A stretch of DNA of 64,000 bases from Candidatus Blackburnbacteria bacterium (lineage in GTDB: Bacteria; Patescibacteriota; Microgenomatia; UBA8517; UBA10165), in NCBI GenBank assembly GCA_016183565.1, contig JACPEJ010000001.1, positions 358,479 to 422,478 on the forward strand, in the 5' to 3' direction. The notes beneath the pieces are model-generated. The model was not told where the DNA came from, searched no databases, and saw only the letters and a program-made list of their open reading frames with translations. This document shows positions 3,758 to 62,545 of this stretch, piece after piece. A program made the position numbers and the translations under genes. Positions within the stretch are counted from its first letter, which is position 1, and the number at the start of each line of letters is the position of its first letter.

Positions 3758-3812
3758 TTTCTTTGCCCCTTTTTCTTAATTGAATGTATAATCGTAGTAG
3801 TAGAGTTGCTAC

Positions 3813-5549
3813 TTGTATACCATGCTTTGTAACCTACGCAAGTATAATGTCTCGCACATACTGCTTTTAAGCAGCATTGTCTTGCTGGCATTTCTTTTGC
3901 GTTTTGTTGGAATTTCTTCTTACCCGGTTGGTTTTACACCGGATGAGGCTTCTTTTGGGTATGATGCTTATTCACTTTTGAAGACTGGGAGGGATCAGTG
4001 GGGGGAATCATGGCCTTTAACTTTTCGCTCGTTTGGAGATTTTAAACTTCCTCTTTATGGTTATTTGACCGTTCCCTCGATCGCTCTTTTTGGCCTTAAT
4101 GAGTTTGCGGTTAGGTTGCCCAATGCTATTTTTGGCACTCTAGCGATTTTGGCAACATACCTTATGGTTGGACAAATGTTCAGAGACAGAAAAATACAAT
4201 TGTTTTCTGCGTTTTTGTTAGCAATTTCTCCTTGGCATGTTTCACTATCAAGAGGGGCTTTCGAGGCAAACCTGACAACCTTTTTTATGCCTTTTGGTAT
4301 TTGGGCTTTTTTGAAAGGTGTAAAGAAACCGCATTGGATGGTTGTTTCGGCAATAGCGTTTGGGCTCAACCTGTTTTCTTATCATTCTGCCCGACTTATA
4401 ACACCTCTAATAGTTCTTTCATTGTTGTGGTTTAATACTACACTCCTACGAACAGATCATTCCCTTTGGGAATGGAGGAGTGTAGGAAAACACAAGTGGG
4501 GATTAAGTGTTTTCAGCGCTTTTTTGGTGATTGCGGTCTATACAGTGTTTTTTGGGGCTGGTGCAAGAGGAGCGGATATTGCAATATTTAATCCAACGGA
4601 CAAATGGTCTGCAGTTTCTGATAGGCGGTACGAAGCTTTTTTGCAAGGGCTTCCAGATGGCGTGGCACGAGTTTTTTCGAACAAAGTGGTTTATGTGATT
4701 GATAATTTTGTTAACAATTACTTTTCTTATTTATCGCCACAATTTCTTTTTACTCAAGGAGCAGGAGAGTGGACTTATGGAATGATTCCAGGGTGGGGGG
4801 TGCTTTATTTAATTGAACTACCGTTTTTGTTATTTGCTTTATGGGGTGTTTTTGCAAGGCGTCCCCTTGCAGGATTGTCAAGGGGACGCCTTATTAAGGT
4901 TATATTGATCTGGATTCTACTTGCACCAATCCCGGCAGCCTTAACTAAAGGAGCGGGGTTTGCGGCAAATCGTGTTTCAGTAATGATGCCGGCGGTTCAA
5001 GTGTTATCAGCATACGGCGCAGTGGTATTGTGGGATGTTATGCAAAAGAGATGGCCAAAGTATAAGCAAGCATTGCTAGCTTGTTACCTTGTTAGTGTCT
5101 TAGTAAGTTTAGGTTTCTTTTTGGAAGACTATCGTTATCACGCACCTAAAAGTGCTGCTGGCGCTATGCTTTATGGAAGACGTGATGCTGTTGATTTTGC
5201 CGAGAGTTTGCAGGATCGATATGGGCGGATTGTTTTTTCAAAGAGTTTGTCTGAGCCCCAAATTTATGTTGCTTTTTATGGAGCTTGGGATCCCAAAGAC
5301 TATCAGGAGCAAGCACAAGGTTGGTTGCGATACGAGAAAGAATGGCTTCTTTTTGTTGATCAACTTGGTGAATATGGCCTAGGTAAGTACGTTTTTAGTG
5401 GTGTAAACAATATTAGAGAGAAGAATGAAAGCAACATTGTTTTGGTTGGTAAGCCCGAGGAATTTCGAAAAGAAGATAATATTTTGAAGGCAATATATTA
5501 TCCTGGCGGTAAGCCGGCAATTTTATTAACAGAATTTAATCCAAATTAA
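3813..5549 (+). CDS. PMT/ArnT-like (GT39/PMT_2-type) GT-C membrane glycosyltransferase, paralog 1 of the tandem array
   Basis: Motifs 'GFTPDEASFGYDAYSLLKTGRDQWGESWPLTFRSFGDFKLPLYGY' and 'LLAPIPAALTKGAGFAANR'. The first in-frame ATG is at 3822; 3813 is a TTG. Confidence 0.65.
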   Translation: MYTMLCNLRKYNVSHILLLSSIVLLAFLLRFVGISSYPVGFTPDEASFGYDAYSLLKTGRDQWGESWPLTFRSFGDFKLPLYGYLTVPSIALFGLNEFAVRLPNAIFGTLAILATYLMVGQMFRDRKIQLFSAFLLAISPWHVSLSRGAFEANLTTFFMPFGIWAFLKGVKKPHWMVVSAIAFGLNLFSYHSARLITPLIVLSLLWFNTTLLRTDHSLWEWRSVGKHKWGLSVFSAFLVIAVYTVFFGAGARGADIAIFNPTDKWSAVSDRRYEAFLQGLPDGVARVFSNKVVYVIDNFVNNYFSYLSPQFLFTQGAGEWTYGMIPGWGVLYLIELPFLLFALWGVFARRPLAGLSRGRLIKVILIWILLAPIPAALTKGAGFAANRVSVMMPAVQVLSAYGAVVLWDVMQKRWPKYKQALLACYLVSVLVSLGFFLEDYRYHAPKSAAGAMLYGRRDAVDFAESLQDRYGRIVFSKSLSEPQIYVAFYGAWDPKDYQEQAQGWLRYEKEWLLFVDQLGEYGLGKYVFSGVNNIREKNESNIVLVGKPEEFRKEDNILKAIYYPGGKPAILLTEFNPN

Positions 5550-5563
5550 TTCTTCTTGCTTTA

Positions 5564-7201
5564 ATGTTTAAAAAGTCAACTTTATTAATAATTGCTTTGT
5601 TGATAGTTGTTGTTGCTCCGACCTTCGCAAGAATGCTTAGGCCTGGTATTTATTCGATGCAGGACTATCACTTTTTTAGACTTTACGAATTTGACCGTTG
5701 TGTTCGGGATTTACAAATTCCTTGCCGGTGGTCTCCGGATGCAGGACTTGGTTTTGGTGAACCATTGTTTAATTTCTATGGACAGTTGGCCTATGTGCCA
5801 GGAGCAGTACTTCATTTGTTGGGTGTTTCGCTTACTGATTCTTTGAAATTACTTTTTATTTTTTCTCTTTTCGGTTCGGCTTTAACTATGTTTTTTTTGG
5901 CACGACAAATTTGGGGGAATAATTCTGCTGCATTCCTATCGTCTGTGCTGTATGTTTGGGCGCCTTACAGAGCAATTGATGTTTGGGTGCGAGGTGCCCT
6001 TCCAGAGGCTTTGAGTTTTGTGATATTTCCGCTTGTTGTATATAGGTTTAACTTACTTGTTAAAAGAGGGAAAGCTTTTGATTTGTTATTGTTTAGTGTT
6101 GTTTTTGCCCTTCTTATACTGACTCACAATCTTTCCACATTTATGTTTGGCTTTTTTCTATTGGGTTGGATTTTTTACAAATTAATATCTTTGAAAAAAT
6201 TTAGAGTTTTACCAAAGATTTTGGGAGGATTTATTCTTTCAGGGCTTTTGTCTGCTTTTTACCTCTTGCCTGTTGTTTTTGAATCGCAGTTTGTGCGTCT
6301 TGAAAATATGACTCAAGGATATTTTGATTTCAGAGGACATTTTGCTGGTATTTGGCAACTTTTGTTTTCAAGATTTTGGGGATATGGTGCTTCGCTTTTT
6401 GGGCCGAATGATGATTTAAATATTTCAATTGGACACCTTCAATGGATTATTCCTCTTTTAGCTTTGGTTGTTTGTGTTGTAAGAAGTAGAAAAAATTTGG
6501 GTAGACTTGTGATGTTGGTTGGTATGGGTTGGTTCTTACTGTTTTTGACACATAACAAGTCTTCTTTTATTTGGGAGAGTTTTCCACAAATGGCCTTTAT
6601 TCAGTTTCCTTGGAGATTTTTAGCTGTTGCTGTTTTTGCTTTTTCGTTAGCTGGAGGAGCTTTTGTGATAACTTTTGGCAGGTATGCTAAGTTTATGGTT
6701 TTAGGTCTTAGCGTGTTTGCAGTTTTTTTAAATTATTCGTTTTTCAAAGAAGATATTTGGAGGAATGTGGGTGATAAAGACATTACTAGTGGAATTTATT
6801 GGGAGGAGCAAACTAGGGCTTCTATACAAGATTATTGGCCTCGGTATGGAAATATTCCTCCTGAGTCTGTGCCCTCTGACTTTGATAACGCCAAGTTAGT
6901 GGATAAGAAAAGTAACGTTGTTTCGTACTATGTTACTACTCAAGAAAAACAAGAGGTCCAATTTCCTGTTACTTATTTTCCGGGATGGGTTGCTAGAATA
7001 GAAAGTACAAAATATGAAACACATCCAACGGGGGAGTATGGTTTGGTAACAAGCACGTTGCCGCAGCTTAACAATACTCTTGTTACTTTGGAATTTAGGG
7101 ATACGTTTGTAAGATTGATTGGTAATGTGGTTAGCATGGTGTCGTTTGTAGCTTTAGTGGTGGTGTTCGGCATTTTTAGAAAAAGAACACATGCAACGTA
7201 A
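5564..7201 (+). CDS. YfhO/PTPS-related-like GT-C-fold membrane protein
   Basis: The N-terminal motif 'DYHFFRLYEFDRCVRDLQIPCRWSPDAGLGFGEPLFNFYGQLAY' follows the D..Q/H..lP.W..G.P pattern of YfhO / 6-pyruvoyl-tetrahydropterin-synthase-related membrane proteins. About 13 TM helices, then a C-terminal extracytoplasmic domain and a terminal TM. Confidence 0.45.
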   Translation: MFKKSTLLIIALLIVVVAPTFARMLRPGIYSMQDYHFFRLYEFDRCVRDLQIPCRWSPDAGLGFGEPLFNFYGQLAYVPGAVLHLLGVSLTDSLKLLFIFSLFGSALTMFFLARQIWGNNSAAFLSSVLYVWAPYRAIDVWVRGALPEALSFVIFPLVVYRFNLLVKRGKAFDLLLFSVVFALLILTHNLSTFMFGFFLLGWIFYKLISLKKFRVLPKILGGFILSGLLSAFYLLPVVFESQFVRLENMTQGYFDFRGHFAGIWQLLFSRFWGYGASLFGPNDDLNISIGHLQWIIPLLALVVCVVRSRKNLGRLVMLVGMGWFLLFLTHNKSSFIWESFPQMAFIQFPWRFLAVAVFAFSLAGGAFVITFGRYAKFMVLGLSVFAVFLNYSFFKEDIWRNVGDKDITSGIYWEEQTRASIQDYWPRYGNIPPESVPSDFDNAKLVDKKSNVVSYYVTTQEKQEVQFPVTYFPGWVARIESTKYETHPTGEYGLVTSTLPQLNNTLVTLEFRDTFVRLIGNVVSMVSFVALVVVFGIFRKRTHAT

Positions 7202-8903
7202 TTCTTTTGCTCTTTTGTTCCTGATTGTTATTTTTGGATTGGGGTTGCGCCTTTATAATATTTCCGATGTGCCCCCTAGTCTTAATTGGGATGAGGTAAG
7301 TCATGGTTATAATGCTTATTCTATTCTTAGGACAGGAAGAGATGAGTGGGGGAAGCAGTTTCCGGTGACTAATTTTCGAGCGTATGGTGATTACCCTTTA
7401 CCGTTAAATTTGTATTTTCTTATTCCGTCTGTTGCGGTTTTTGGTTTAACTGAGTTTGGAATTCGGTTTCCTCATGTTATTTTAGGCACACTCACAATTA
7501 TCAGCTCGTTTTTTCTTGCTTACGGGGTAGCTAGGAGGCGGGTAGTAGGTTTTCTAGTTGCTCTTTTGGTAGCTATTGAGCCTTGGTATGTTTTTCCCTC
7601 GCGCTTTGTTCTTCAGTCTAACATGTCGGTGTTTTTAATCATCACGAGTATGGCTTTGTTTTTTAATCGTGAGAAACACAGGATTTTTTTACCATTAGCA
7701 GCCTTTTTGTTGGGGCTGACCTTATTTGCTTATCACAGTACCAGAATTTTCTCACCACTTCTTTTATTAGCAGTTATTTTTATATACAGACCTGACTTGT
7801 TTAAATGCTTGAAGAAGGAGAGCGTATTGTCGATGATCTTGTGGGGTGTGGCTTCTGTATTTTTTTTATCCTTGCCTGTGATACTTTTGAATAATGAAGC
7901 GCGAGCAAGAGCAAATTGGGTTTTTTTAATTGATCAAGGAGCTGTCAATAAGATTATTGAGAGCAGGAGTAATTCTCACCTTCCTCCAATTCTTGTTAAA
8001 GCGGTTTATAATCGGCCTGTTTATTTTATTAAAGCGTTCTCACAGCGCTATGTTGAATACTTTTCTCCGGAATTTCTCTTCTATAAAGGGGGAACTCACT
8101 ATCAATTTAGTGTGCCGGACACAGGATTATTGTACAAAATAAATTTGCCGTTTTTCTACCTAGGCTTATTCTGTATTATATGTGCTGCTCTTAAGCGTAA
8201 AAAGGATTACATTTTTGTAACTGTGTGGTTTTTATTAGCTCCAATTCCAGCAAGTATAACCCAAGAACATTTTGCCGTGCTGCGTTCTACAACCTTCTTA
8301 CCTCTGCCGCAGCTTTCTGTAGCATTAGGATTTTTGTTTGGACTAGATTTAATAAAAAGAAAGTTTGGAAGGGGCGAGGTATCTGGAAAGGTTGCTGTTA
8401 CACTTTATGTTGCACTCCTTTTAATTGAGTTAGAAGGATATTTAACTGTATTGTTTACTGAGTATAATCAAAAATATTCTTGGGCATGGCAGTATGGTTA
8501 TAAACAAGTAGCAGAGTATGCGAAGCAGAGATATGGAAATTATGACAAATTTATTGTTACTAAAAAGTATGGCGAACCACACGAGTTTTTCCTTTTCTAT
8601 TTGCATTATGATCCGCGAAAATATATGAACGACCTTGGTACTGTTCGATACTTTAAGTCGGATTGGTATTGGGTAGATGGGTTTGATAAGTTTTATTTTC
8701 TCAATGACTGGAATGTAGTAGGAGACACAGGTACAGATGGAGGTACAGAATTTGTGTTGGAGAGTGGTGGAACTGTGGATTGCAGGATGTTACGGTGTTT
8801 GATGATTACTAGTCCAGGGAATTATCCCTTGGGATGGCGATTGGTCGAAACTATTTATTTTCTTGACGGAAAGACTGCTTTTGAGATTTTGGAAAACATA
8901 TGA
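7191..8903 (+). CDS. PMT/ArnT-like GT-C membrane glycosyltransferase, tandem paralog 2
   Basis: Motifs 'LNWDEVSHGYNAYSILRTGRDEWGKQFPVTNFRAYGDYPLPLNLYF', 'LLAPIPASIT', and the C-terminal 'YGYKQVAEYAKQRYGNYDKFIVTKKYGEPHEFFLFYLHYDPRKY'. The start overlaps the upstream stop. Confidence 0.65.
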   Translation: MQRNSFALLFLIVIFGLGLRLYNISDVPPSLNWDEVSHGYNAYSILRTGRDEWGKQFPVTNFRAYGDYPLPLNLYFLIPSVAVFGLTEFGIRFPHVILGTLTIISSFFLAYGVARRRVVGFLVALLVAIEPWYVFPSRFVLQSNMSVFLIITSMALFFNREKHRIFLPLAAFLLGLTLFAYHSTRIFSPLLLLAVIFIYRPDLFKCLKKESVLSMILWGVASVFFLSLPVILLNNEARARANWVFLIDQGAVNKIIESRSNSHLPPILVKAVYNRPVYFIKAFSQRYVEYFSPEFLFYKGGTHYQFSVPDTGLLYKINLPFFYLGLFCIICAALKRKKDYIFVTVWFLLAPIPASITQEHFAVLRSTTFLPLPQLSVALGFLFGLDLIKRKFGRGEVSGKVAVTLYVALLLIELEGYLTVLFTEYNQKYSWAWQYGYKQVAEYAKQRYGNYDKFIVTKKYGEPHEFFLFYLHYDPRKYMNDLGTVRYFKSDWYWVDGFDKFYFLNDWNVVGDTGTDGGTEFVLESGGTVDCRMLRCLMITSPGNYPLGWRLVETIYFLDGKTAFEILENI

Positions 8904-10570
8904 AAATGAAATACATCCTTATTGTAATAGTTCTTCTTGGTTCAGTTTTTAGGTTGTGGGGTCTTTCCGAGAATCCTCCTCACTTGACGAGTGACGAAGC
9001 GGCGCTTGGCTATAACGCTTATTCTATTTTAAAAACTGGGCGGGATGAGCACGGTGAATTATTCCCAATAGTTTTTAAATCATTTGGGGACTGGAAACCG
9101 GGGCTTTATGTGTATCTTACAGTACCGTTTGTAGCGACCCTTGGTTTAACAGAACTTGCAGTAAGATTACCAGCGGCTATAGCTGGTGTCTCGGCAATAG
9201 TTCTTCTGTTTTTGATAACACACCAACTTTTTGATAACAAAAAGGTTGCTCTTTTTGCAAGTTTCTTTTTAGCTATTTCTCCTTGGCATATACAGTTTTC
9301 GCGGGGGGCATGGGAGGCTGGTATTGCTTTAACACTTACCCTTTTAGGAATTTACTTTTTCCTTCTAGTGGTTAAGGGCAGACCACGCATGCTTATTGTT
9401 GCGGGTTTATTTTTTGCCTTAACCCTTTGGACATATCAGGGTGCAAAGCTTGCAACTGCCGTAGTGGGGCTTGGACTTTTGATCTGTTTTTGGAAGGAAC
9501 TCTCGAAAGTTTCGCTAAAGATTTTAGGCAAAAGTTTAGCAATTGGTTTTTTGGTTGCCTTACCAGTTTTGGTGGGTTTTTGGCAGGGGAAAACAGGTAG
9601 GCTTGAGGTTTATAGTATTTTTTCGTACAGACGGCCTGAGGATTATGTGCAAGCTATTCTTGGCCAAGAACGTGTGAGCCGTGATTCTTGGCAATATATT
9701 CTTTACCACTCCGAATCTCTAAATTTTGTACGGGGCATATTGGGCAGGTGGTTTAATTACTATTCAGGACGATTTTTGTTTTTCGATGGTGATTGGACTA
9801 ATCCTCGTCATGCTGTCCCTAATTCAGGGAATTTATTGATAATAGATAGTATAATGCTCGTCCTTGGTCTCTTTGCCTTGTCACGGGTAGGTGCAAAGAA
9901 GGAAGCGCTTTTTGTTTGGTTTTGGATTATTTTTGCTCCATTGCCAGCAGCTTTGTCTCGAGACTCGGTTCATGCTATACGTACGTTAAATATGGTAATT
10001 CCGCTAACAATTTTATTGGCGTTGGGTGCAAATGCTGTCTGGGATCAAAGAAAGAGAGTTGGGAAATTGCTGCCTGTGTTGTTGGTAGTTTTCAGTGGGA
10101 TCTATATAGCAAACTATGTGTATTATCTTGATCAATACTGGATTCATGGGCCAAAGAGAAATTCCAAATATTGGCAGTATGGTTATAAGCAGATGGTTGA
10201 GAAACTCACTCCACTTCAACAAAAATATGATGAGATAGTTGTTATTCAGGATTATACGCAACCGTATATATTTTTCCTTTTCTACCAAAAGTACGATCCT
10301 GTAAAGTATCAAGGAATGGTCAGTCAAGTTTATATGCCTAACAAATATGGGGATGTTGGTCTTGTTTCGGGATTGGATAATATTACGTTTAGGGATATAA
10401 ACTGGCAAGATGATCGTGGTATGGTTGGGAAACTTTTTGTTGTAGATCCGATTCGTGTTCCTATTGTGGATTCAAGTAGCCCGGCGGAATTTAAATTAGT
10501 TGATCAGGTGAATTATTTAAATGGAGATGTGGCATTTCGTATTTTAGAAATCCTTGGGGAAAAGAGATAA
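8900..10570 (+). CDS. PMT/ArnT-like GT-C membrane glycosyltransferase, tandem paralog 3
   Basis: Motifs 'LTSDEAALGYNAYSILKTGRDEHGELFPIVFKSFGDWKPGLYVY', 'IFAPLPAALSRDSVHAIR', and the C-terminal 'YGYKQMVEKL..YDEIVVIQDYTQPYIFFLFYQKYDPVKY'. ATGA overlap with the upstream gene. Confidence 0.65.
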   Translation: MKMKYILIVIVLLGSVFRLWGLSENPPHLTSDEAALGYNAYSILKTGRDEHGELFPIVFKSFGDWKPGLYVYLTVPFVATLGLTELAVRLPAAIAGVSAIVLLFLITHQLFDNKKVALFASFFLAISPWHIQFSRGAWEAGIALTLTLLGIYFFLLVVKGRPRMLIVAGLFFALTLWTYQGAKLATAVVGLGLLICFWKELSKVSLKILGKSLAIGFLVALPVLVGFWQGKTGRLEVYSIFSYRRPEDYVQAILGQERVSRDSWQYILYHSESLNFVRGILGRWFNYYSGRFLFFDGDWTNPRHAVPNSGNLLIIDSIMLVLGLFALSRVGAKKEALFVWFWIIFAPLPAALSRDSVHAIRTLNMVIPLTILLALGANAVWDQRKRVGKLLPVLLVVFSGIYIANYVYYLDQYWIHGPKRNSKYWQYGYKQMVEKLTPLQQKYDEIVVIQDYTQPYIFFLFYQKYDPVKYQGMVSQVYMPNKYGDVGLVSGLDNITFRDINWQDDRGMVGKLFVVDPIRVPIVDSSSPAEFKLVDQVNYLNGDVAFRILEILGEKR

Positions 10571-10588
10571 ATTAGAATTTAAAAACAA

Positions 10589-12277
10589 ATGAGAATTTGT
10601 CTTCAACTATATATGAAACGTTTAATTTGGCTAATTATAATTCTTGCTGCAATACTGCGTTTTTATCGTTTGGATGTTTTGCCTGCGTTGAATGCTGATG
10701 AGGCAGCGATAGGATATAATAGTTATTCACTTATTAAAACAGGTAATGATGAGCATGGGAACTTATGGCCAGTTCATTTTCAGTCTTTTAATGACTATAA
10801 ACCGGGATTGTATTTTTACTTGGTTTTACCTTTTGTCGCGTTTTTTGGTTTGAATGAGTGGGCAGTAAGAATACCTGGGGCTTTTCTTGGGGTTTCTACG
10901 GTTTTTGTAGTTTGGCTTCTTGTGAAAGAGTTGTTTCCAGATAGAAAGTGGCTGCCAGAGTTATCAGCATTTTTTCTTACTATTTCTCCTTGGCATATTC
11001 ATTTTTCTCGAGGGGGATGGGAAGTGAATGTGGCGACATTTTTTATAACCGTGGGGGTTTGGGGATTTATTAAAGGGGTTAGAGATAACAGATGGTTTTG
11101 GCTTTCGAGTTTAGCTTTTGTTGCCTCACTGTATACTTATCATACTGCGAGGATTGTTGTTCCATTATTGATATTGGGTTTTTTGTTTATTTTTAAAAAA
11201 GCTCTTTTTTGGGATAGTAAGGATGCTGTTTTTAAATTCTTGAAAGTTGGTGTACCCAAGCATTTTTTCTTGAGTGTTGTGGTAGGGGTATTGTTTTTAG
11301 TGCCTTTAGTAAGAGGTCTTTTAGGACCGGCAGGTGTTTCTCGTGTTGCGGGTGTTGGGCTTTTTGCTGATACTGGTCCTTTTTGGCTAACAAATCAGCA
11401 ACGTGGGGAACATGAAGATTTTCAGGGTAAATTTGCTTTACTTTTACACAATAAACCAATCAACTATGGTATTGCTTTTTTGGAAAATTATGCTGGGCAT
11501 TTTTGGGGAGAATTTCTTTTCTTGTCAGGTGATGAAATTCAGCGAAACAAGGTTCCAGAAATTGGCCAAATGTACTTGTTTGATCTTTTGTTTTTGGCTC
11601 TGGGTTTAATAGTTATTGCAAGAAGTCCTAAAAACTGGGGAGTTGTAATCTTGTGGATTATGGTTGCTCCTGTTGCAGCGGCCCTTACGTTTCAGTCCCC
11701 CCATGCCTTAAGAGCTGAGAATATGGTAGTCCCTTTGACGATGATTAGTGCGTATGGTGGATATTGGTTATGGGGGAAGTGCAGACCCTCGGACAGAGGG
11801 AAGTTAGGCAGGTTAGGGAAGTTATGTGAGATACTGCTTGTAGTTTGGGTATTATGGGATTTTTCTCGATATTTACACCAGTATTATTTTCATATGGCGA
11901 AGACTTATGATTACTCTTCCCAGTATGGAATGAAGGAATTAGTACAATATATTACTCACAATAATAGCGAGAATAGGAGAGTGGTGGTAACTAATAGGTA
12001 TGATCAGCCGTATATTCTTTTCTTGTTCTATTTAAAATATCCGCCGGAGCAGTTTCAAAAGGAGCATGTTTTGACCCCAAGAGATAAATTTGGTTTTTCC
12101 ACAGTGGAGGGGTTTGGGAATTACACTTTTCGAGAGATTGGAAATTGGGATGAGATAAGGCGAGATTATCCGGGTGCTTTAATAGCTGGGACAGAGGACG
12201 AGATCCCGGGTGGAAATATACTTAGCACTATTACCTTTCCAAGTGGGAGAACGGTGTTTAAGATTGTAGCTAACTAG
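10589..12277 (+). CDS. PMT/ArnT-like GT-C membrane glycosyltransferase, tandem paralog 4
   Basis: Motifs 'LNADEAAIGYNSYSLIKTGNDEHGNLWPVHFQSFNDYKPGLYFY', 'IMVAPVAAALTFQSPHALR', and the C-terminal 'QYGMKELVQYI..RRVVVTNRYDQPYILFLFYLKYPPEQF'. Confidence 0.65.
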   Translation: MRICLQLYMKRLIWLIIILAAILRFYRLDVLPALNADEAAIGYNSYSLIKTGNDEHGNLWPVHFQSFNDYKPGLYFYLVLPFVAFFGLNEWAVRIPGAFLGVSTVFVVWLLVKELFPDRKWLPELSAFFLTISPWHIHFSRGGWEVNVATFFITVGVWGFIKGVRDNRWFWLSSLAFVASLYTYHTARIVVPLLILGFLFIFKKALFWDSKDAVFKFLKVGVPKHFFLSVVVGVLFLVPLVRGLLGPAGVSRVAGVGLFADTGPFWLTNQQRGEHEDFQGKFALLLHNKPINYGIAFLENYAGHFWGEFLFLSGDEIQRNKVPEIGQMYLFDLLFLALGLIVIARSPKNWGVVILWIMVAPVAAALTFQSPHALRAENMVVPLTMISAYGGYWLWGKCRPSDRGKLGRLGKLCEILLVVWVLWDFSRYLHQYYFHMAKTYDYSSQYGMKELVQYITHNNSENRRVVVTNRYDQPYILFLFYLKYPPEQFQKEHVLTPRDKFGFSTVEGFGNYTFREIGNWDEIRRDYPGALIAGTEDEIPGGNILSTITFPSGRTVFKIVAN

Positions 12278-15348: not shown

Positions 15349-16611
15349 ATGAAATTTACAAAGATATTATTCCTGTATTTTTTGTCTTTGGCCGGAAGCT
15401 CGTTTTTTGCGGGAAGTATTATTATGGTGCTTGGTACAAATTTTCATAACCTTGGCCAGTTGGTCTACCACTTTCTGGCCGGCAGACTTTTAGGCAAAGT
15501 TTTCTATGGAGACCTGGCGGCCCTAATTTCTATTTTTGGTCTTCTTGCAATAATTCAACAAGCTTTTGGTTTAACAATTATTAAGTTTGTTGCATCAGCA
15601 AAAAGTCCCGAGGAAGCTAATAACTTTACCAAGTGGGTGTGGTTCTGGAGTATTTGGGTAGGTGTTATAGTTTTTGTCTTGCTTTTGTTTTCCTCACCAT
15701 TTATAGTCCAATTTTTAAACATTAGTCAACCGCAGGTAATTTATATATTTATTCCCGTCGTTCTTGTTGGCTTTATCTCAAATACTGGTAGAGCGCTTTT
15801 ACAAGGTTTTACTAGATTTACCCAGTTTGTTGTTAGTATGGTTGCAGAAGTAGGAGCAAAGATTGTTGCTATGGTACTTCTTGTATATCTCGGCTACTCA
15901 CTTTTTGGGGCAGTAGCAGCACTTCCTGTGGGAGCTGTGGTTGGATTTGTTATTGTCTGGTTGGGGTTGAGGAAAAACCTTAAAGGACCAAGAGCCAAGA
16001 TGCCCAATCTCTCCCCTCTTTTTGCATATTCATTTCCCGTGTTTATTCAAAGTATTGCTCTTACTTCAATGTATTCATCAGATATTTTGCTTGCTAAGCA
16101 CTTTTTTACCGCAGAGCAGGCAGGACTTTATGCTGCCTTGGCAAAACTTGGAACGATTGCATTCTTCAGCTCTTCTCCGATAACGAGTGTGATGTTTCCA
16201 ATAATTGCGAGAAATCATACGCATGGTCAGCCCTATCACAGAATTTTTTACCTTAGTGTCGCTTTAGTTACACTGATTTCATTAGCCGTAATAATCTCCT
16301 ATATATTCCTTTCTGGTTTTATTATCGGGATTCTTTTTGGCAAAGATTTTGTTGAAGGCGCCCCGATTTTATGGTGGTTTAGTCTTTATATGTTCCTATT
16401 GGGGGTCGGAATGCTTTTTGTTCATTTTTATTTGTCGATTGGTAAAACAAAAGTCGTTTGGTTGTTTGCCGCAGCAGCACTTACTCAAATAGTTCTGATT
16501 CTGGTGTTTCACGCCACCTTATTAAGTGTTATTCAAATGTCAATAATTGCAGCAGCTTTACTCGTTCTGGGTCTTCTTCTATACTTTCCTTACCACCACA
16601 GACAAAGATGA
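15349..16611 (+). CDS. Wzx-like polysaccharide / lipid-linked oligosaccharide flippase (MOP superfamily)
   Basis: 420 aa with 12-14 TM helices and the typical 'polysaccharide biosynthesis protein' topology. Short positively charged loops ('GLRKNLKGPRAKMPN') lie between two 6-TM halves. Overlapping boundaries on both sides. Confidence 0.55.
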   Translation: MKFTKILFLYFLSLAGSSFFAGSIIMVLGTNFHNLGQLVYHFLAGRLLGKVFYGDLAALISIFGLLAIIQQAFGLTIIKFVASAKSPEEANNFTKWVWFWSIWVGVIVFVLLLFSSPFIVQFLNISQPQVIYIFIPVVLVGFISNTGRALLQGFTRFTQFVVSMVAEVGAKIVAMVLLVYLGYSLFGAVAALPVGAVVGFVIVWLGLRKNLKGPRAKMPNLSPLFAYSFPVFIQSIALTSMYSSDILLAKHFFTAEQAGLYAALAKLGTIAFFSSSPITSVMFPIIARNHTHGQPYHRIFYLSVALVTLISLAVIISYIFLSGFIIGILFGKDFVEGAPILWWFSLYMFLLGVGMLFVHFYLSIGKTKVVWLFAAAALTQIVLILVFHATLLSVIQMSIIAAALLVLGLLLYFPYHHRQR

Positions 16612-17396
16612 AAAACGGGCTGTTATCTATTGTTGTACCGGCGTACAAGCAAGAGCAAACGATTAAAAGAGATCTTGAGAATATAGATCAAACGTTGCGT
16701 GAGGGACTAAAAGGCTATATTTATGAAATTATATGTGTTGTGGATGGTAGGGTTGATCGAACTTGGGAAGAGGCTAAGAAAGTGAAGTCTAGAAGAGTTA
16801 AGGTTGTTGGCTATGATGCAAATCGTGGCAAGGGTTACGCAGTTAGATATGGTATGGCAACATCCAGGGGTGATTGGGTTTCGTTTTTGGATGCTGGTAT
16901 GGAAATAAGCCCAACTGGAATTATGATGCTGATGGCGCATATGGAGTGGTATGGTGCCGATATTATAGTTGGGTCCAAACGCCACCCTGCTTCCCGAGTA
17001 AACTATCCTTTCCTTCGTTATATTCTAAGTATTGGCTATCATGGTTTATCGATGTTTTTTTTTGGTTTACCACTTAGGGATACACAAAGCGGAATAAAAA
17101 TTTTCAAAAGAGAAGTACTTAAAAAGATTCTTCCTCGACTTCTGGTTAAAAGGTATGCAATGGACATAGAAATGTTAGCAGTAGCCAAATATCTTGGATT
17201 TGATAGAATTTTTGAGGCTCCTATAGAAGTAAGATTTGATCAAAGAACGAGTAGGGTTTCCTGGCGCAGTATTTTTAACATGGCATGGGACACACTGGCA
17301 GTGTTTTATCGCCTAAAAATCTTGCATTATTATGATGATAAAAACAGGAAAAACTGGCTTGTTGATCATGAATATTCTTATTCTTTCTTGGCGTGA
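16608..17396 (+). CDS. GT2 polyprenyl-phosphate sugar synthase-like glycosyltransferase (DPM1-like)
   Basis: 'LSIVVPAYKQEQTI', 'CVVDGRVDRT', 'VSFLDAG', 'GSKRHPASRVN' and 'RDTQSGIKIFKREVL' are DPM1/GtrB hallmarks. The real ATG is at 16608, overlapping the flippase stop (ATGA); the upstream part of tracked ORF 16458 lies inside the flippase. Contains a T9 homopolymer at 17055-17063. Confidence 0.7.
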   Translation: MKNGLLSIVVPAYKQEQTIKRDLENIDQTLREGLKGYIYEIICVVDGRVDRTWEEAKKVKSRRVKVVGYDANRGKGYAVRYGMATSRGDWVSFLDAGMEISPTGIMMLMAHMEWYGADIIVGSKRHPASRVNYPFLRYILSIGYHGLSMFFFGLPLRDTQSGIKIFKREVLKKILPRLLVKRYAMDIEMLAVAKYLGFDRIFEAPIEVRFDQRTSRVSWRSIFNMAWDTLAVFYRLKILHYYDDKNRKNWLVDHEYSYSFLA

Positions 17397-18486
17397 CCCC
17401 AAACATCCATTAGCTGGTGGTGCAGAGCAAGTTATGCATGAACATGCAAAGGGGTGGGTGGAGGCTGGCCATAATGTTACCCTTTTTGCCTCTCACTTTA
17501 AGTATGCACCCCGCTGTCAGGTGTTGGACGGTGTAACCGTAATAAGATATGGTTTTCAATATCTTGGTGTCCATTTGGCAGCCTTTTTCTGGTACTTGTT
17601 TGGCAAACACGCGCATTTTGATTTGGTTGTTGATCAGTTCCATGGCATTCCTTTTTTTACGCCCTTTTATGCAAGAGTGCCTAAACTTGCGGTACTTCAA
17701 GAAGTGGCACGCGAAGTTTGGCTGATTAACCACTTACCGTGGCCATTTAGTTGGATTGTAGGATGGATGGGGTATCTTAGCGAACCGTTGGTCTTTATTT
17801 TTTATAAACATGCTCCGTTCATGGTGGGTTCTGAATCGGCAAAACAAGACCTAATTAAATTGGGAATTGGTGATAATAATATTACAGTTGTACCTCATGG
17901 TGTGTTGATAAGAAAACCTAAGCCAGTGCCTCAAAAAGAAAAAGTTAAATCAATTGTCTTTTTGGGTGCTTTGGCAAAAGATAAGGGTGTTGAAGACGCA
18001 ATAAAGGCATTTGGCTTACTCACTAAATTTGGTAAGTTTGAGTTTTGGATAATTGGTAGAGGTTCTGTAAGTTATATAGCTAAACTTAAAAAACTTGCAA
18101 GTTGTGTTGGAGTAGAGAAAAGTACTATCTTTTGGGGTTTTGTATCTGATAAGAAAAAGTTTGAATTACTTGCAAGAGCGCATGTTATGGTTAATCCGTC
18201 TGTTCGAGAAGGATGGGGACTTGTTAATATTGAGGCAAATGCAATGGGTACACCAGTTGTGGCTTATAGGTCTCCAGGTTTGGTTGACTCGGTGAAAGAT
18301 GGGGTTAGTGGTGTTTTATGTTACCACAATACTCCTGAAGCCCTAGCAGAAGCTATTTTTGCTTTACTAAAAGATGCTAGTTATTTGGCGAGCATAAGTA
18401 AAACTTCAGTTGCGTGGAGTAAACAGTTTACTTGGGTAGAATCGCGCGCAAGGAGTTTAAAACTGATTGAGAAAATAGCTACTTGA
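17368..18486 (+). CDS. GT4-family glycosyltransferase
   Basis: The 'EGWGLVNIEANAMGTPVVAYRSPGLVDSVKDGVSGVL' GT4 C-terminal motif. The likely start is M13 (ATG 17368) of tracked ORF 17332, which reduces the overlap with the upstream gene. Confidence 0.75.
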   Translation: MNILILSWRDPKHPLAGGAEQVMHEHAKGWVEAGHNVTLFASHFKYAPRCQVLDGVTVIRYGFQYLGVHLAAFFWYLFGKHAHFDLVVDQFHGIPFFTPFYARVPKLAVLQEVAREVWLINHLPWPFSWIVGWMGYLSEPLVFIFYKHAPFMVGSESAKQDLIKLGIGDNNITVVPHGVLIRKPKPVPQKEKVKSIVFLGALAKDKGVEDAIKAFGLLTKFGKFEFWIIGRGSVSYIAKLKKLASCVGVEKSTIFWGFVSDKKKFELLARAHVMVNPSVREGWGLVNIEANAMGTPVVAYRSPGLVDSVKDGVSGVLCYHNTPEALAEAIFALLKDASYLASISKTSVAWSKQFTWVESRARSLKLIEKIAT

Positions 18487-18528: not shown

Positions 18529-19098
18529 ATGAACAAGGTTTTTGCGGTCGCAACAATTGTTTTGGGATTGTCACTTATTCTAGTAGCACCAGTATATGCT
18601 GTACAGAGGAGGTTGCCTACCTCCGCACCGACTCCAACTCCCACCCCTACCCCCACTGTTGTTCCTGTCAATTCGTTTGAGTTGTTTTGGCCACTTGTTG
18701 CAGGCAAAACAGAAGGTGATTCTTTTTATTCTTTGAAGCTTATTAAAGAACAGGTTCAAGGTTGGTTTATTTTTGACGGTTCAAAAAAAGCAGATTATCA
18801 AGTTTTCTTGGGTACAAAGCGTGTACTAGAATCAGAGAAGCTTATTAAAGAAAGTAAAGCCAAAAATGCTGAGAAAACACTTGAACGAGCAAGTAGTAAC
18901 TTTTCTCGAGCGTATGATTTTGCCAAGACCGCAGGAGACAAAGGTAACTTTGATGCAGGCAAAGTTAGAAAGGATAGGCTGTTTAACGTAAAAACCTTGA
19001 TTGACTCACTGAAGGTGTTTGCCCCGAGTGATCTGAACATAGGTCTTGATGTGGTTAGGGGTAAAGCAGATAGACTTCTAAGCGACTATTTACCCTAG
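18529..19098 (+). CDS. small secreted protein with a signal peptide and Pro/Thr-rich linker, a putative O-glycosylation acceptor
   Basis: N-terminal 'MNKVFAVATIVLGLSLILVAPVYA' is signal-peptide-like. It is followed by 'PTSAPTPTPTPTPTVVP' and then a charged, helix-rich domain. Paralogous to the 62546 gene. Confidence 0.5.
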   Translation: MNKVFAVATIVLGLSLILVAPVYAVQRRLPTSAPTPTPTPTPTVVPVNSFELFWPLVAGKTEGDSFYSLKLIKEQVQGWFIFDGSKKADYQVFLGTKRVLESEKLIKESKAKNAEKTLERASSNFSRAYDFAKTAGDKGNFDAGKVRKDRLFNVKTLIDSLKVFAPSDLNIGLDVVRGKADRLLSDYLP

Positions 19099-19115: not shown

Positions 19116-21233
19116 CTACTCCCCGAAAGTGAAGATCCGGAGACCAATACTTGATAGGTCACAAGGATAATTTACAGGAGAAACTAGTCTTATATACTGA
19201 GCGTTATCTCCTGGAAAAAGAAAAACAAAATCTGCATTATATCCGGCTATTTCCCTCACAGAGAAATTATTTACACTCTCGTCTTTTTGAAAGTACTGAT
19301 CTCCGTCCGTAGAAATGTACACAGTTGCGCCAATTAACTTATTTTTACACTCATCCGAAGGAAAAGAAAAAGTCAAAGCCTTAAGCTTTTTTATTCTATA
19401 AAGCGAAATAAAAATTTCTTTTTTACCATCATAGGCAGAGTATGTTCTCTTGAATTGCTCACTTGTTCCTTCTATATTAAGACCTTCTTTAAGGTATTGC
19501 TTGTCATTTTTCCATATTTTTAAAACTGGAACACCATCCACTCTTACGGCATATACCTCGTTGAGAAAGTTATCTAAGTATTTATGTCTAAAAGTATTAC
19601 TGAATATATCTTGTCCAACAACAAGCGCCATTTGGTATTCTCCCTCTTGGTTGTAGCCGCTTCTGGAACCATTAGAAAAATCGATATCTTCTCGAAGAGA
19701 TAGGCGAGATATATTTTGTGCATTTCCAGAAACTAGTGCAAGTTTTGCTCTTAGTTCTGCATTTTGGTTTATCCACTTTACGCCTTGTAAGTAAGCGTTA
19801 CCGTAAGTATTTCCATATCCAGGGAAATCTTTTTCCGCTGCACCTTTTAGCCCTCCTATGAGAAAGTTAAAATAAACATTTTGGTTTGGATGTATTTTCC
19901 AAAGAGTCGAGAGTGTGGGTATAAAACCAGCTAAGATTAGAAGAGATACAATTAAGCTGATAATTTTTTTCTTTGGTCGTTGAGACAGAAAATACTTTGT
20001 CAGGATTTTAGCAATAAAGTTTCGCAAAAAAAGTGCGCCAACACTCGCTATCATTGCCATGGGTGCAACAAATTCCATAATTTGTCTTAACCCCCCATAT
20101 ATATTAGTTATTGAAAAAGTTACCCTAAGAATTGTAAAGTAAAAGAAAGTAAGCCAAAGAATAGTGACAGAACCTTTTTCCTTAAAACGAAAAACGCCAA
20201 CGATAGAACCTACAAGAAGCAGAAAAAGGGTAAAGGGGGGAATTGTATACAGGAAATATTTGATGCTAATAAGTTGTGTGCACTCTGTGAACCAGAATTT
20301 CGTTAAGGGAGAATGGGGACATGTTGGTCCGCCAATGTCTTTATAGTACATAACGACTTGATAAATTTTTTCTGCGGGATTAGGCCACAAAGCTGGCCAA
20401 GTCAGAAAGAAAACCAAAAATATGATTATTGGATAGATGGCAAGAGCAAGAAGCATTCTTTTTGAGAAGATCTGTTTTAGGCGGTGGTAGTTTGTGAATA
20501 GGTAGGCTGCAAACCAAGGGAAAAGAATAAATGGAGCAAATACAAAATTAAACTTTGTGCCGAACGATGCTCCTCCTGCTAACGCAGAGAGAATAAGGTA
20601 TAAAATCCTCTTTTTTGTAAATGACAGCCAAAAGAAATATAGAGAAATAATAAAAAACGTTGCCATTGGAGGGTCTTTGATATTAAAATGTTGTTCTGCA
20701 AAAAGAAGCGGAAGGGTGTAAATTGTTAGTACGGATATAATGGAAGCAAAGGTTCCGAAAGTTCGTTTTGCCCAAATAGAGACGGTTAAAGCCAGCAAAA
20801 ATGTGGTAAACACACTGTAGAGGTGATAACTGTCTATATCTTCGACCCAACCCAGATATTTGAAAAAGACTGTGTTGCTTGCCGCAAGCATCAAGTCACT
20901 AAAAGCAGGATGTCCGTAGGTGCCTTTTGCAACCCAGCTATTAAAGTCAAGAAGATTGCTTTCGTATTCACTAACACGCACTTTGCGATGTCTGTCGCAG
21001 ACTTCGCCCGTAGCCGCGTCTACGTGGGAGTTTAAATTATATTCACTTTTACAAAGACTGGGTAAATCGGAATAGTCCGTTTTATGAGATAAAATATAGC
21101 GTAAATAAGCTTGGCCGCGTGCAAAGTGAACTGGTGAATCCCAATTCATTCCATAGTCATATTGTGTTGTAAGGGCAACAATAAAAAACAGTATTGGAAT
21201 TAAAAAGGAGGAAAAGCGTTGGATTAAGGTCAT
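19116..21233 (-). CDS. large GT-C-fold-like polytopic membrane protein with a C-terminal extracytoplasmic domain (paralog A of an inverted pair)
   Basis: The N-terminus 'MTLIQRFSSFLIPILFFIVALTTQYDYGMNWDSPVHFARGQAYLRYILSHKTDYSDL' parallels the 25672 gene. 'NIYGGLRQIMEFVAPMAMIASVG' and 'NVYFNFLIGGLKGAAEKDFPGYG' are shared with it. ATG at 21233; the track starts at an upstream alternative start codon (21278). Confidence 0.55.
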   Translation of the reverse strand: MTLIQRFSSFLIPILFFIVALTTQYDYGMNWDSPVHFARGQAYLRYILSHKTDYSDLPSLCKSEYNLNSHVDAATGEVCDRHRKVRVSEYESNLLDFNSWVAKGTYGHPAFSDLMLAASNTVFFKYLGWVEDIDSYHLYSVFTTFLLALTVSIWAKRTFGTFASIISVLTIYTLPLLFAEQHFNIKDPPMATFFIISLYFFWLSFTKKRILYLILSALAGGASFGTKFNFVFAPFILFPWFAAYLFTNYHRLKQIFSKRMLLALAIYPIIIFLVFFLTWPALWPNPAEKIYQVVMYYKDIGGPTCPHSPLTKFWFTECTQLISIKYFLYTIPPFTLFLLLVGSIVGVFRFKEKGSVTILWLTFFYFTILRVTFSITNIYGGLRQIMEFVAPMAMIASVGALFLRNFIAKILTKYFLSQRPKKKIISLIVSLLILAGFIPTLSTLWKIHPNQNVYFNFLIGGLKGAAEKDFPGYGNTYGNAYLQGVKWINQNAELRAKLALVSGNAQNISRLSLREDIDFSNGSRSGYNQEGEYQMALVVGQDIFSNTFRHKYLDNFLNEVYAVRVDGVPVLKIWKNDKQYLKEGLNIEGTSEQFKRTYSAYDGKKEIFISLYRIKKLKALTFSFPSDECKNKLIGATVYISTDGDQYFQKDESVNNFSVREIAGYNADFVFLFPGDNAQYIRLVSPVNYPCDLSSIGLRIFTFGE

Positions 21234-21257
21234 GCTTGTACAAATAGGGCTTCGTAG

Positions 21258-21290
21258 TACCCTTAGACGTGGTATCATTATATACTAGTT
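21258..21290. promoter_or_regulatory. compact divergent promoter region for the 21233(-) and 21309(+) genes, with overlapping -10 elements
   Basis: The 75-bp intergenic space contains 'CATTATATACT'. This reads TATACT on the + strand (21281-21286) and TATAAT on the - strand (21277-21282). The -35 elements are weak. Confidence 0.3.
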
Positions 21291-21308: not shown

Positions 21309-22316
21309 ATGATTGTAGTAAGAGCGCCGCTACGAGTAAGTTTTGTTGGTGGAGGTACAGACCTTGCCGATTTTTATACACGCACACCGGGCCGCGTAAT
21401 TTCAACAGCTATCGACAAATGGGTGTATTTAGTTATCAACAAAACTCCAATGATTGATAAAATATCAGCCCGTTATTCTATTACTGAAACTGTAGATAAG
21501 CTCGATGAGCTACAACATACTCGTATTAAAGCAGCATTACTCGACTTAGGGATTGAAAAAGGAATTGAGATTGGCTCATTTGCTTCACTTCCAGCTAAGA
21601 CTGGTTTGGGGTCTTCCTCCAGCTTTTCGGTTGCATTGATGAAGGGCCTCCATGCTTCTTTTGGGAGAAGCCTAACACCATACCAGGCTGCAGAAGAAGC
21701 ATGCCGGCTTGAGATTACGCTGTTGGGAGAACCTATAGGCAAGCAAGACCAATATGCAGCGGCTTTTGGTGGCTTGAACCGCATTCAATTTAATCCAGAC
21801 CATAGTGTGGAAGTCAAACCAATACTGATAAACTACCGTGTCCAATCAAAAATTGAAGATCATTTGCTTATGTTTTTTACGGGTATCACACGTTTTGCCT
21901 CGGAAATTCTGACAGAACAAAAAAACAATATTTATCAAAAATTCGACACCCTCTGTGAAATGGCCGACTCAACCTTTGATTTTGAAAAGATGCTTCTTGG
22001 GGGAGATGTAGAAGGTATGGCAAAGATGCTCCACAGTGGGTGGCTTCTCAAACGCTCTCTCGCATCCTCTGTCTCCAATTCTGCCATTGACAATCTTTAC
22101 AGTATTGGAGTAGGGGCGGGTGCATTGGGTGGAAAGGTGCTTGGTGCTGGCGGGGGTGGTTGTATTCTTTTTATAGTGCCTCCTAAAAAATGGAGTGGAG
22201 TATCTAAGGAGCTTTTGAAAGAATCGGCAAGGAATAGTCTTTCTCAAGCAAGAGTTATCCCTTTCCGTTTTGCTAATTTTGGAACTGAAGTTGTATTTGA
22301 TGACCAAATAACATAA
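21309..22316 (+). CDS. GHMP-family sugar kinase (heptose-7-phosphate-kinase / fucokinase-like)
   Basis: 'IVVRAPLRVSFVGGGTDLADFY', the GHMP motif 'PAKTGLGSSSSFSVALMKGL', and C-terminal 'GKVLGAGGGGCILFIVP'. Confidence 0.75.
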   Translation: MIVVRAPLRVSFVGGGTDLADFYTRTPGRVISTAIDKWVYLVINKTPMIDKISARYSITETVDKLDELQHTRIKAALLDLGIEKGIEIGSFASLPAKTGLGSSSSFSVALMKGLHASFGRSLTPYQAAEEACRLEITLLGEPIGKQDQYAAAFGGLNRIQFNPDHSVEVKPILINYRVQSKIEDHLLMFFTGITRFASEILTEQKNNIYQKFDTLCEMADSTFDFEKMLLGGDVEGMAKMLHSGWLLKRSLASSVSNSAIDNLYSIGVGAGALGGKVLGAGGGGCILFIVPPKKWSGVSKELLKESARNSLSQARVIPFRFANFGTEVVFDDQIT

Positions 22317-34462: not shown

Positions 34463-35152
34463 ATTGTTGTGATTCTTATAGACTTTCTTATACCTTGCCT
34501 TAACCAACAACCTTTCCATGGCTTCATCTGTCAGTATATCAGCCTCGACACAAACTATCGTAGGTCTAAATTTCCCCCAATCGTTACTTTTTAAAACCTC
34601 AAGATCGTATCCCTCAACATCCACACTTAAAAAATCAATTTTTTTGTTTTTGCAATATTCTTTGAATATTTCACTTAGTCTTGAAACTTTTATTCTTGAA
34701 GTCTCAACTAGCTTAAATCCTTCCTTTTTATAATTCTCTGCGGCTTTTTTCGAAAAAGTTGAAAGTGTTTCCGGTTCAAACTTAAAATACTCAAGTTTTC
34801 CACTTTTGTTTGCAATCCCGAGGTTTAAGTTTGTGTCTCTGGGACGCGAGTTATAGAATTTCTTAATTTTTCGAGGATCTGGTTCAATATTTATTCCTGT
34901 CCAACCGCGTGCATAAAACCTCTTTGTGTTGCTGAGTCTTGTAGGATTGTATGCGCCCACATCAACGTAAAACCCAGATTTTCTATTTCCCAACAAGTTA
35001 TCGATCAAAATATCCTCTCCGTTTTGACTAAACGATTTTTGAAGAAACCCTCTTTTTAACATCAGAATCTCTCCGATTAAGTACTGAAATAGTCTCATTG
35101 GGCCGTACAGTTTTAAATAGTTGTAAGATTTTAGAATCATCGAGATTTTCAA
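34436..35152 (-). CDS. FkbM-family methyltransferase
   Basis: 'GFYVDVGAYNPTRLSNTKRFYARGWTGINIEPDP' and 'IDFLSVDVEGYDLEVL' are FkbM hallmarks. TTG start at 35152 with an internal ATG at 35140. Its 3' end overlaps the convergent GT4 gene by 27 nt. Confidence 0.7.
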   Translation of the reverse strand: MKISMILKSYNYLKLYGPMRLFQYLIGEILMLKRGFLQKSFSQNGEDILIDNLLGNRKSGFYVDVGAYNPTRLSNTKRFYARGWTGINIEPDPRKIKKFYNSRPRDTNLNLGIANKSGKLEYFKFEPETLSTFSKKAAENYKKEGFKLVETSRIKVSRLSEIFKEYCKNKKIDFLSVDVEGYDLEVLKSNDWGKFRPTIVCVEADILTDEAMERLLVKARYKKVYKNHNNLIFLLKKQ

Positions 35153-56592: not shown

Positions 56593-56663
56593 GCCGTTGG
56601 TGGCTGTCCTCTCACTATTTGTTCGTACTGAGAAAGTTGCGAAGAGTATTGAACTTATTTTTT

Positions 56664-56691
56664 TTGCCATTTAAACTTCAAAGAGTATACT
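56664..56691 (+). promoter_or_regulatory. strong candidate sigma70-like promoter for the giant membrane-protein gene
   Basis: TTGCCA(56664-56669), a 16-nt spacer, TATACT(56686-56691), with an upstream T8 tract. ATG 56703 lies 11 nt downstream, so the mRNA is leaderless or has a very short leader. Confidence 0.45.
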
Positions 56692-56702
56692 TCAAGTATA
56701 TT

Positions 56703-62481: not shown

Positions 62482-62545
62482 TTGTTTCCTTAGGATATCA
62501 TAAATGTTGTTTTTACCTGGCAGGTATGTTAATCTTTTTAACAGT

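Follow-up and report, generated by a model that had tools for sequence, protein, structure and literature searches.

What do two small, apparently secreted proteins contribute to a large block of glycan genes? The question was raised by a 64-kb stretch of the genome of a Candidatus Blackburnbacteria bacterium, referred to here as the window (64,000 nucleotides). The CPR bacteria, to which it belongs, have not been cultured; their genomes are tiny, and they rely on contact with other cells. An earlier note, made from the sequence of the window, had described two genes of about 170-190 aa as a paralog pair at the borders of GT-C gene blocks. It had proposed the products as substrates or carriers for PMT-type O-mannosyltransferases and had named accessory or assembly factors as the fallback.

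Both genes proved to be real open reading frames, of 189 aa (protein A) and 172 aa (protein B). The parts of protein A were delimited as follows.

18529-19098, + strand: DUF5667 protein A, 189 aa
18529-18600, + strand: signal peptide of A, residues 1-24 (alignment)
18601-18669, + strand: PT-rich disordered linker of A, residues 25-47 (alignment and model)
18670-19095, + strand: five-helix domain of A, residues 48-189 (alignment and AlphaFold model)

Protein A is 100% identical to the NCBI entry HYU80_02020 (Candidatus Blackburnbacteria; Microgenomates group, Patescibacteria group). It opens with the signal peptide MNKVFAVATIVLGLSLILVAPVYA, continues with the linker VQRRLPTSAPTPTPTPTPTVVPV and enters the domain at NSFELFWP. 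Pfam DUF5667 (PF18915) was matched at 41.4 bits, above the gathering threshold of 27 bits. The AlphaFold2 model comprised five helices (67-79, 84-107, 111-137, 148-164 and 167-187; pLDDT 87.9, pTM 0.74), and the linker was modelled with low confidence (pLDDT about 55). Family A was aligned from 35 homologs (alignment A1); linker and signal statistics were taken from 60 A homologs. Alignment A1 comprised the same three parts, namely a signal-peptide-like N-terminus, a variable linker and a domain of about 142 aa, and this length held for the mature domain in nearly all 60 homologs (range 138-155). The motif FWP was invariant, lying inside NSYELFWPLVAGKTEGD and followed by the helices. Close members of family A also share a C-terminal ...DYLP (window 19084-19095, alignment A1), which matches no known sorting signal.

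Protein B lies at the other end of the window, divergent from a large membrane protein.

62546-63064, + strand: DUF5667 protein B, 172 aa when read from the ATG codon at 62546 (NCBI form 186 aa from 62504)
Within B, + strand: signal peptide, residues 1-26; short linker, 27-37; five-helix domain, 38-172 (alignment and model)
60514-62565, - strand: polytopic protein divergent from B, 683 aa (655 from Met29), probable GT-C

Protein B is HYU80_02215 of the same assembly. It matched DUF5667 at 28.5 bits, also above the 27-bit threshold; the earlier note had suggested a search of Pfam for DUF families, and one such family was returned for both proteins. Alignment A2 (23 homologs) contained a signal-peptide-like N-terminus, a variable linker and a domain of about 142 aa in family B too, with the motifs 'VNPxDGF...KRLGEK' and, at the C-terminus, 'TTAEWRFVKHD.DYL.IYISQL'. 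The AlphaFold2 model of B comprised five helices (49-65, 69-92, 96-119, 123-144 and 152-171; pLDDT 84.9), again with a low-confidence linker.

Start calls seem too long for both divergent genes (62481-62565 and 62504-62546). For B, the start at 62546 appears better than the 62504 of NCBI, because in alignment A2 the hydrophobic stretch of the orthologs is preceded by M and 2-6 further residues. For its neighbour, orthologs are 646-667 aa, not 683, so the protein probably starts at Met29 (62481). With starts at 62481 and 62546 the divergent intergenic region is 64 nt. Promoter and terminator scans of the window gave hits at chance level; a lone promoter-like site (9/12) at 62473-62501 is consistent with the start of B at 62546.

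The relation between A and B was examined at several levels. BLASTP found no significant similarity (E = 5). Comparison of the two family profiles by hhalign gave a probability of 95.4% and an E of 1.7e-8, at 17% identity over 139 columns. With each family's profile, the other protein was the best non-self match among the 190 ORFs of 50 aa or more in the window, and nothing else scored. A merged alignment of both families (A3) spans the proteins end to end; in it K87 and E101 (A numbering) are invariant in both families, F53, K70, E74 and R98 are nearly so, and family A carries a 12-residue insertion, relative to family B, that holds the FWP motif. The two AlphaFold2 models share one five-helix architecture. 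On profile and model evidence, A and B are taken to be remote relatives within one superfamily rather than a recent pair. The homologous helical domain described in the earlier note was borne out, as both proteins pass the DUF5667 threshold and the same five-helix domain is predicted for both; the 'paralog pair' stands at the level of profile homology and falls as a close pair.

An exhaustive profile search for the family returned 6050 representative clusters at E <= 1e-3, 1084 at 1e-10 and at least 202 at 1e-30; the proteins of the best 150 clusters were all 142-206 aa. Like Pfam DUF5667 at large, A and B pass the family threshold, and all close homologs carry the same annotation. They differ in belonging to a uniform small subset of 142-220 aa, built of signal peptide, linker and one domain, which was here met only in Microgenomates/Patescibacteria glycan clusters. 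A search of one literature library found no paper mentioning DUF5667, and broader searches on CPR glycosylation returned nothing relevant. NCBIfam gave no match for A, B or their large neighbours. Foldseek searches of the PDB with the A and B models gave generic helical bundles and designed repeats only (all E > 0.1), and a PDB sequence search with the A profile gave designed coiled coils only. A and B are additional members of an established Pfam family with no assigned function.

Signal-peptide features were judged from alignment columns and a simple heuristic script. In both A and B the last residue of the signal peptide is Ala. Among the 60 A homologs the residue at -1 was Ala in 56, Gly in 3 and Ser in 1, and the residue at -3 was V (28), A (14), I (8), T (6) or S (2) in 58/60. 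A hydrophobic N-terminal segment followed by a signal-peptidase-like site was present in 255/260 relatives; the other five resemble truncated gene calls. The heuristic script found the features of Sec export and signal peptidase I cleavage, that is, a basic n-region, an h-region, small residues at -3/-1 and no lipobox Cys. The small-residue pattern at -3/-1 is what signal peptidase I recognises, and export and cleavage of A and B by this enzyme are therefore likely from the sequence. The signal-peptide-like N-termini reported in the earlier note were thus upheld. A lipobox-like motif (e.g. LFAC, LWAC) was seen near the N-terminus of 5/260 relatives (P0060, P0071, P0084, P0092 and P0177), which may be lipid-anchored variants, fitting a function at the membrane surface. 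Among 54 window proteins, A and B were the only two that are soluble apart from one hydrophobic segment at the N-terminus.

The window is a glycosylation island. By Pfam it holds at least 11 PMT/PMT_2-type GT-C genes, about 10 GT2, about 7 GT4, about 9 methyltransferases and sugar-nucleotide enzymes. About 50 of its genes are glycan genes, and just one encodes a Wzx flippase. Genes for a dihydroorotate-dehydrogenase-family protein, a FAD/GMC-type oxidoreductase and an asparagine synthase lie among the glycosyltransferases (35149-37628 and 39666-41558) and may serve sugar modification instead of core metabolism. The genes around A are listed first.

2201-12277, upstream of A: six GT-C paralogs in tandem, all reading in one direction (PMT, PMT_2, PTPS_related), 15-25% mutual identity
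14154-15347, + strand: 397-aa polytopic protein, constant in the A module, with weak PMT_2 and 'cell surface glycopolymer formation' matches
15349-16611, + strand: Wzx-type flippase (Polysacc_synt by Pfam), sole Wzx of the window; shares its strand with A, which follows after 1.9 kb
16458-17396, + strand: GT2 upstream of A; every A-type locus compared has a copy with 58-68% identity to this one
17332-18486, + strand: GT4 directly upstream of A
19116-21278, - strand: 720-aa PMT_2-type GT-C, convergent with A across a 17-nt gap (PMT_2 26.7 bits, cutoff 26.1)

Around B, in addition to the divergent gene, the following were found.

56619-60197, + strand: 1192-aa polytopic protein, conserved upstream of B, with DUF5667-like residues ~718-805 (nt 58770-59033)
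60187-60552, + strand: small membrane protein of 121 aa (about four hydrophobic segments) whose gene regularly comes after that of the 1192-aa protein
63273-64000, + strand: N-terminus of a polytopic protein that leaves the window, ortholog of the 854-951-aa (~870-aa) protein found after B-type genes

The divergent neighbour of B (60514-62565) had no Pfam match. Its hhalign comparison with a window PMT_2 profile gave 88.5% and E 2.7e-6 over the N-terminal 140 columns, and the protein is probably a GT-C on this profile evidence. The earlier claim that each gene borders GT-C genes therefore held for A, through the PMT_2 gene at 19116-21278 and the six-gene array, and for B through the GT-C-like neighbour detected by hhalign. 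Co-duplication of partner genes along with A and B was considered and rejected: BLASTP found no similarity between the GT-C neighbour of A and the polytopic neighbour of B, nor between the protein downstream of B and the neighbour of A. The 121-aa gene converges on the 683-aa gene and overlaps its 3' end; no family was matched, and the product may act as a small membrane protein of flippase-like or accessory type.

Contexts of homologs were compared in 21 loci, 16 of them independent. Their proteins were compared with the window proteins by BLASTP, and Wzx genes were counted by HMM. Family A loci (L001-L006, L018) followed the order GT-C(PMT_2) - GT2 - GT4 - 397-aa polytopic - Wzx - GT2 - (extra genes) - (GT4) - A. 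An ortholog of the 720-aa GT-C was present, convergent with the A-type gene, in L001-L004; in L005, L006 and L018 the A-type gene had none beside it. Family B loci (L007-L015, L019-L021) had orthologs of the 1192-aa and 121-aa proteins upstream of B, the divergent GT-C-like gene of ~650 aa before it, and the ~870-aa polytopic protein followed by Wzx - GT2 - methyltransferase after it. Since the ~870-aa gene precedes Wzx in B-type loci and runs off the end of the window, the Wzx belonging to B is expected just past that end. In 14 of the 16 independent loci the DUF5667 gene had exactly one Wzx gene on its own strand at a distance of 2-5.5 kb; the two exceptions were L009/L013, where the contig ends too early, and L016. 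In L017 a B-like DUF5667 gene (9992-10480; 31% identity to B) occupied an A-type position, after GT-C - GT2 - GT4 - polytopic - Wzx - GT2 - GT4, which suggests an interchangeable role within the module. The link to glycan machinery proposed in the earlier note was well supported by this conserved synteny.

Two observations on the loci concern other matters. Genes for a GHMP kinase, a SIS-domain isomerase and a transaldolase-like protein lie 3' of family A genes (L001 9684-12171; L003 10739-13141), and only the GHMP kinase is kept in the window (21309-22316); the set is suggestive of the synthesis of heptose or another unusual sugar precursor. Three MAG contigs (L013, L014, L017) are labelled 'uncultured Gammaproteobacteria bacterium' and carry the same Microgenomates-type cluster with orthologs 44-58% identical, which suggests wrong taxonomy or bin contamination.

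Conserved position bears on the reading that A and B are only loosely tied to glycan assembly. They might be structural proteins of a surface coat or wall, or might bind glycan or lipid after assembly, with the gene travelling along for co-regulation. DUF5667 is large, as the cluster count at E <= 1e-3 indicates, and has no known function, and the nearest low-rmsd structural neighbours of A were the lipid-binding helical bundles of fungal Mp1p, at non-significant values (TM 0.34-0.47, E > 0.2). The genes nevertheless keep a fixed same-strand position with short gaps, in two module types, among homologs only 31-60% identical. This argues for a role within the pathway over loose co-location, and we regard the looser association as rather improbable.

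The pairing with Wzx equally raises a role analogous to the polysaccharide co-polymerases (Wzz/PCP): in a pathway of Wzx/Wzy type, the protein would control how long the glycan chains become or would link polymerisation with export. Like these, A and B are predicted to be helical extracytoplasmic proteins encoded with Wzx-dependent glycan genes. The DUF5667 gene adjoins a candidate polymerase-like polytopic protein, its domain is all-helical by AlphaFold2, and Pfam recognised no Wzz/PCP gene in the modules. PCPs, however, have a long helical hairpin and an alpha/beta base. A and B differ from them in size and predicted shape: they match no Pfam family but DUF5667, and hence no Wzz domain, they have a single cleavable N-terminal segment instead of two flanking TM helices, and their compact 140-aa bundle is unlike the PCP shape and found no fold match in Foldseek. 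A co-polymerase analogue is accordingly the least likely of the readings weighed here, with only a slim chance.

The substrate or carrier role favoured in the earlier note depended on the linkers, which it had called low-complexity. The description suits A, whose run PTSAPTPTPTPTPTVVP contains 14/17 S/T/P, the highest among the 54 window proteins (runner-up 10/17). It does not suit B, whose linker 'TDTAPVAAEE' is neither low-complexity nor S/T/P-rich and whose best 17-aa stretch (7/17 S/T/P) equals background. An origin of the PT linker as slippage-prone DNA repeat was considered and dropped, as Tandem Repeats Finder reported no tandem repeat in the linker DNA and the codons are varied; the varied codons of the PT run indicate that the repeat is maintained at the protein level.

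The linkers of the 60 A homologs were 8-31 aa long (median 17). Their commonest three residues were T, S and P, and S+T+P averaged 0.38 in the linker vs 0.15 in the folded domain. S+T+P was at least 0.4 in 29/60 and below 0.25 in 11/60, and three or more PT/TP dipeptides occurred in only 17/60. Even among homologs 50-55% identical to A, P0004 and P0007 are PT-rich and P0008 and P0009 are not. In the wider sample of 260 relatives the A-type linkers had a mean S+T+P of 0.36; the B-type linkers (67 proteins) had a mean of 0.23, with 9% reaching 0.4, and in the B homolog P0068 the linker is almost absent. Because PT repeats are confined to 17/60, 11/60 linkers are S/T/P-poor and the B-type mean is so low, S/T/P richness appears, across these sequences, to be a tendency in family A and no conserved feature, and to be essentially absent in family B. 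The earlier note had made conservation of a Ser/Thr/Pro-rich linker in orthologs decisive; the outcome went partly against the substrate idea, the 11/60 together with the B-type linkers counting against it and the 29/60 A homologs standing on the other side.

Actinobacterial Pmt substrates are secreted proteins or lipoproteins, O-mannosylated on Thr/Ser within Pro/Ala-rich stretches close to the N-terminus, e.g. M. tuberculosis Apa and LpqH. They are not known to be encoded, as a rule, within the glycosylation cluster. Some pilin or S-layer genes do sit beside their glycosylation machinery. Protein A resembles the actinobacterial substrates in its predicted Sec export, its disordered Pro/Thr stretch after the signal peptide and the PMT-family GT-C and GT2 genes nearby; it differs in that the linker composition is unconserved in its family and missing in B. 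Ser/Thr in a Pro/Ala-rich disordered stretch, as expected of a PMT-type O-mannosylation substrate, was present in A, conserved in part of family A and absent in B-type proteins. Actinobacterial O-mannosylation acts on exported proteins with no strict sequon, Ala/Pro/Gly-rich surroundings being favoured (PMC6593405).

A dedicated glycan acceptor or carrier would be O-glycosylated on its N-terminal S/T/P-rich tail. The sugars would come from polyprenyl-phosphate donors through a PMT-type GT-C, or a Wzx-flipped oligosaccharide would be transferred en bloc. A and B are the only two exported-type soluble proteins in the window, so that the earlier ranking of the pair as the best in-window substrate candidates was fair; A has in addition the only strong S/T/P run. 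PMT, PMT_2 and GT2 genes are plentiful nearby, T, S and P lead the linker composition of the A homologs, nearly half of which reach 0.4, and tight pairing with Wzx fits a dedicated acceptor equally well. Against this, the S/T/P-poor A linkers, the B-type values and the nearly linker-free P0068 show S/T/P richness to be unconserved, the strong conservation falls on the helical domain, a DUF5667-like segment within a membrane protein (described below) could not act as a carrier there, and Pfam found no WaaL/PglL-type (Wzy_C) oligosaccharyltransferase in the window. The tie to glycan machinery and the PT run of A thus survive from the original proposal, and the conserved acceptor tail does so only in part. 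A dedicated acceptor is judged unlikely for the two families, and for A on its own the role is possible at similarly low likelihood.

The membrane protein with the DUF5667-like segment is the 1192-aa protein upstream of B. About 10 hydrophobic segments lie in its first 480 residues, with a further TM helix at the C-terminus, and no Pfam family scored above threshold. A weak DUF5667 match was found at residues 718-771, with an equivalent in the same place in the L007 ortholog. When the segment was taken from 7 orthologs, DUF5667 (PF18915) was the top Pfam family in 6/7 (best E 2e-6); the segment of the 1192-aa protein scored 16.8-21.2 bits (21.2 for the window copy in this comparison), below the 27-bit cutoff, and hhalign gave E 0.005 with a probability of only 7%. 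The register of the core motif agrees between the 1192-aa protein (FYPLKERQEEELLSQSKDPGSKLADYLGLVLRRTAEQKRMI) and protein A (FYSLKLIKEQVQGWFIFDGSKKADYQVFLGTKRVLESEKLI), and the segment sits in the predicted extracytoplasmic part. A fused DUF5667 copy in this protein is probable on these weak matches, though not established. If real, it would mean that the domain can function as an integral outer part of a membrane protein resembling an enzyme. Assignment of the 1192-aa protein as a PMT-like GT-C was rejected, its profile comparison not being significant, and the family profiles of the 683-aa and 1192-aa proteins matched no sequence in the PDB. What is new here for DUF5667 is the consistent placement in Wzx/GT-C glycan modules of Microgenomates, together with this possible fused copy.

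The reading we tentatively favour, with a likelihood a little short of even, is that A and B are extracytoplasmic accessory components of Wzx/GT-C glycan assembly. Each would be exported by Sec, probably cut by signal peptidase I, and would carry one ~140-aa five-helix DUF5667 domain, and each protein is a fixed component of its own Wzx-centred surface-glycan assembly module in Microgenomates bacteria. The DUF5667 protein would act outside the membrane as a non-catalytic partner that aids the GT-C-type or other polytopic enzymes of the module, perhaps because it binds or presents the lipid-linked glycan once flipped, or the polymer as it grows. In the 1192-aa protein, the DUF5667-like segment could supply an equivalent role in cis. 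The Pro/Thr linker of A would be a fast-evolving disordered spacer, quite possibly O-glycosylated in passing, which would not be why the genes are kept.

We infer this physical partnership and biochemical role, because the genes hold a fixed position in two module types with one-to-one Wzx pairing, because the fold is conserved and the linker varies in length and composition, because a fusion into a membrane protein is possible, and because GT-C enzymes have precedent for small accessory subunits. An example is PIG-M with PIG-X/PBN1 in GPI mannosyltransferase I (PMC9306709). In that pair a small non-catalytic extracytoplasmic or lumenal protein likewise stands beside a polytopic lipid-sugar-dependent transferase; for A and B the interaction is read from the genes, and adjacency and the possible fused version hint at the same logic. 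There is no sequence or fold relation to PIG-X, which is membrane-anchored, and A and B are apparently cleaved. The fallback of the earlier note, accessory or assembly factors, fits the synteny and fold conservation best.

Several points weigh against an accessory role. Fold matches give no functional clue, none in the PDB falling below E 0.1 in Foldseek, and the fused domain is weakly supported by scores below the Pfam cutoff and an hhalign probability of 7%. Once cleaved, a soluble protein would depend on something that retains it at the surface, as the cell lacks an outer membrane. There is no constant GT-C partner, the 720-aa gene being missing beside the A-type genes in three loci. The S/T/P enrichment of A-type linkers over the folded domain fits an acceptor too. 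The two roles are compatible, as a PT-tailed accessory protein may be glycosylated in passing.

Despite the CPR lifestyle, this Blackburnbacteria genome devotes at least 64 kb to surface glycosylation. Should A prove to be glycosylated, its small size would make it a handy reporter substrate for the glycosylation enzymes of CPR bacteria. The one-per-flippase placement in two modules and the possible fused copy provide a concrete, testable first hypothesis for DUF5667 with its partner genes named. A bolder form of this hypothesis, which we hold as doubtful but worth stating, is that small DUF5667 proteins are an unrecognised obligatory extracytoplasmic subunit of the Wzx/GT-C machines that assemble surface glycopolymers in CPR (Microgenomates) bacteria, one per flippase module and sometimes fused into a membrane enzyme. 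If true, this would be the first function for DUF5667 and would reveal a form of extracytoplasmic polymer assembly specific to CPR bacteria.
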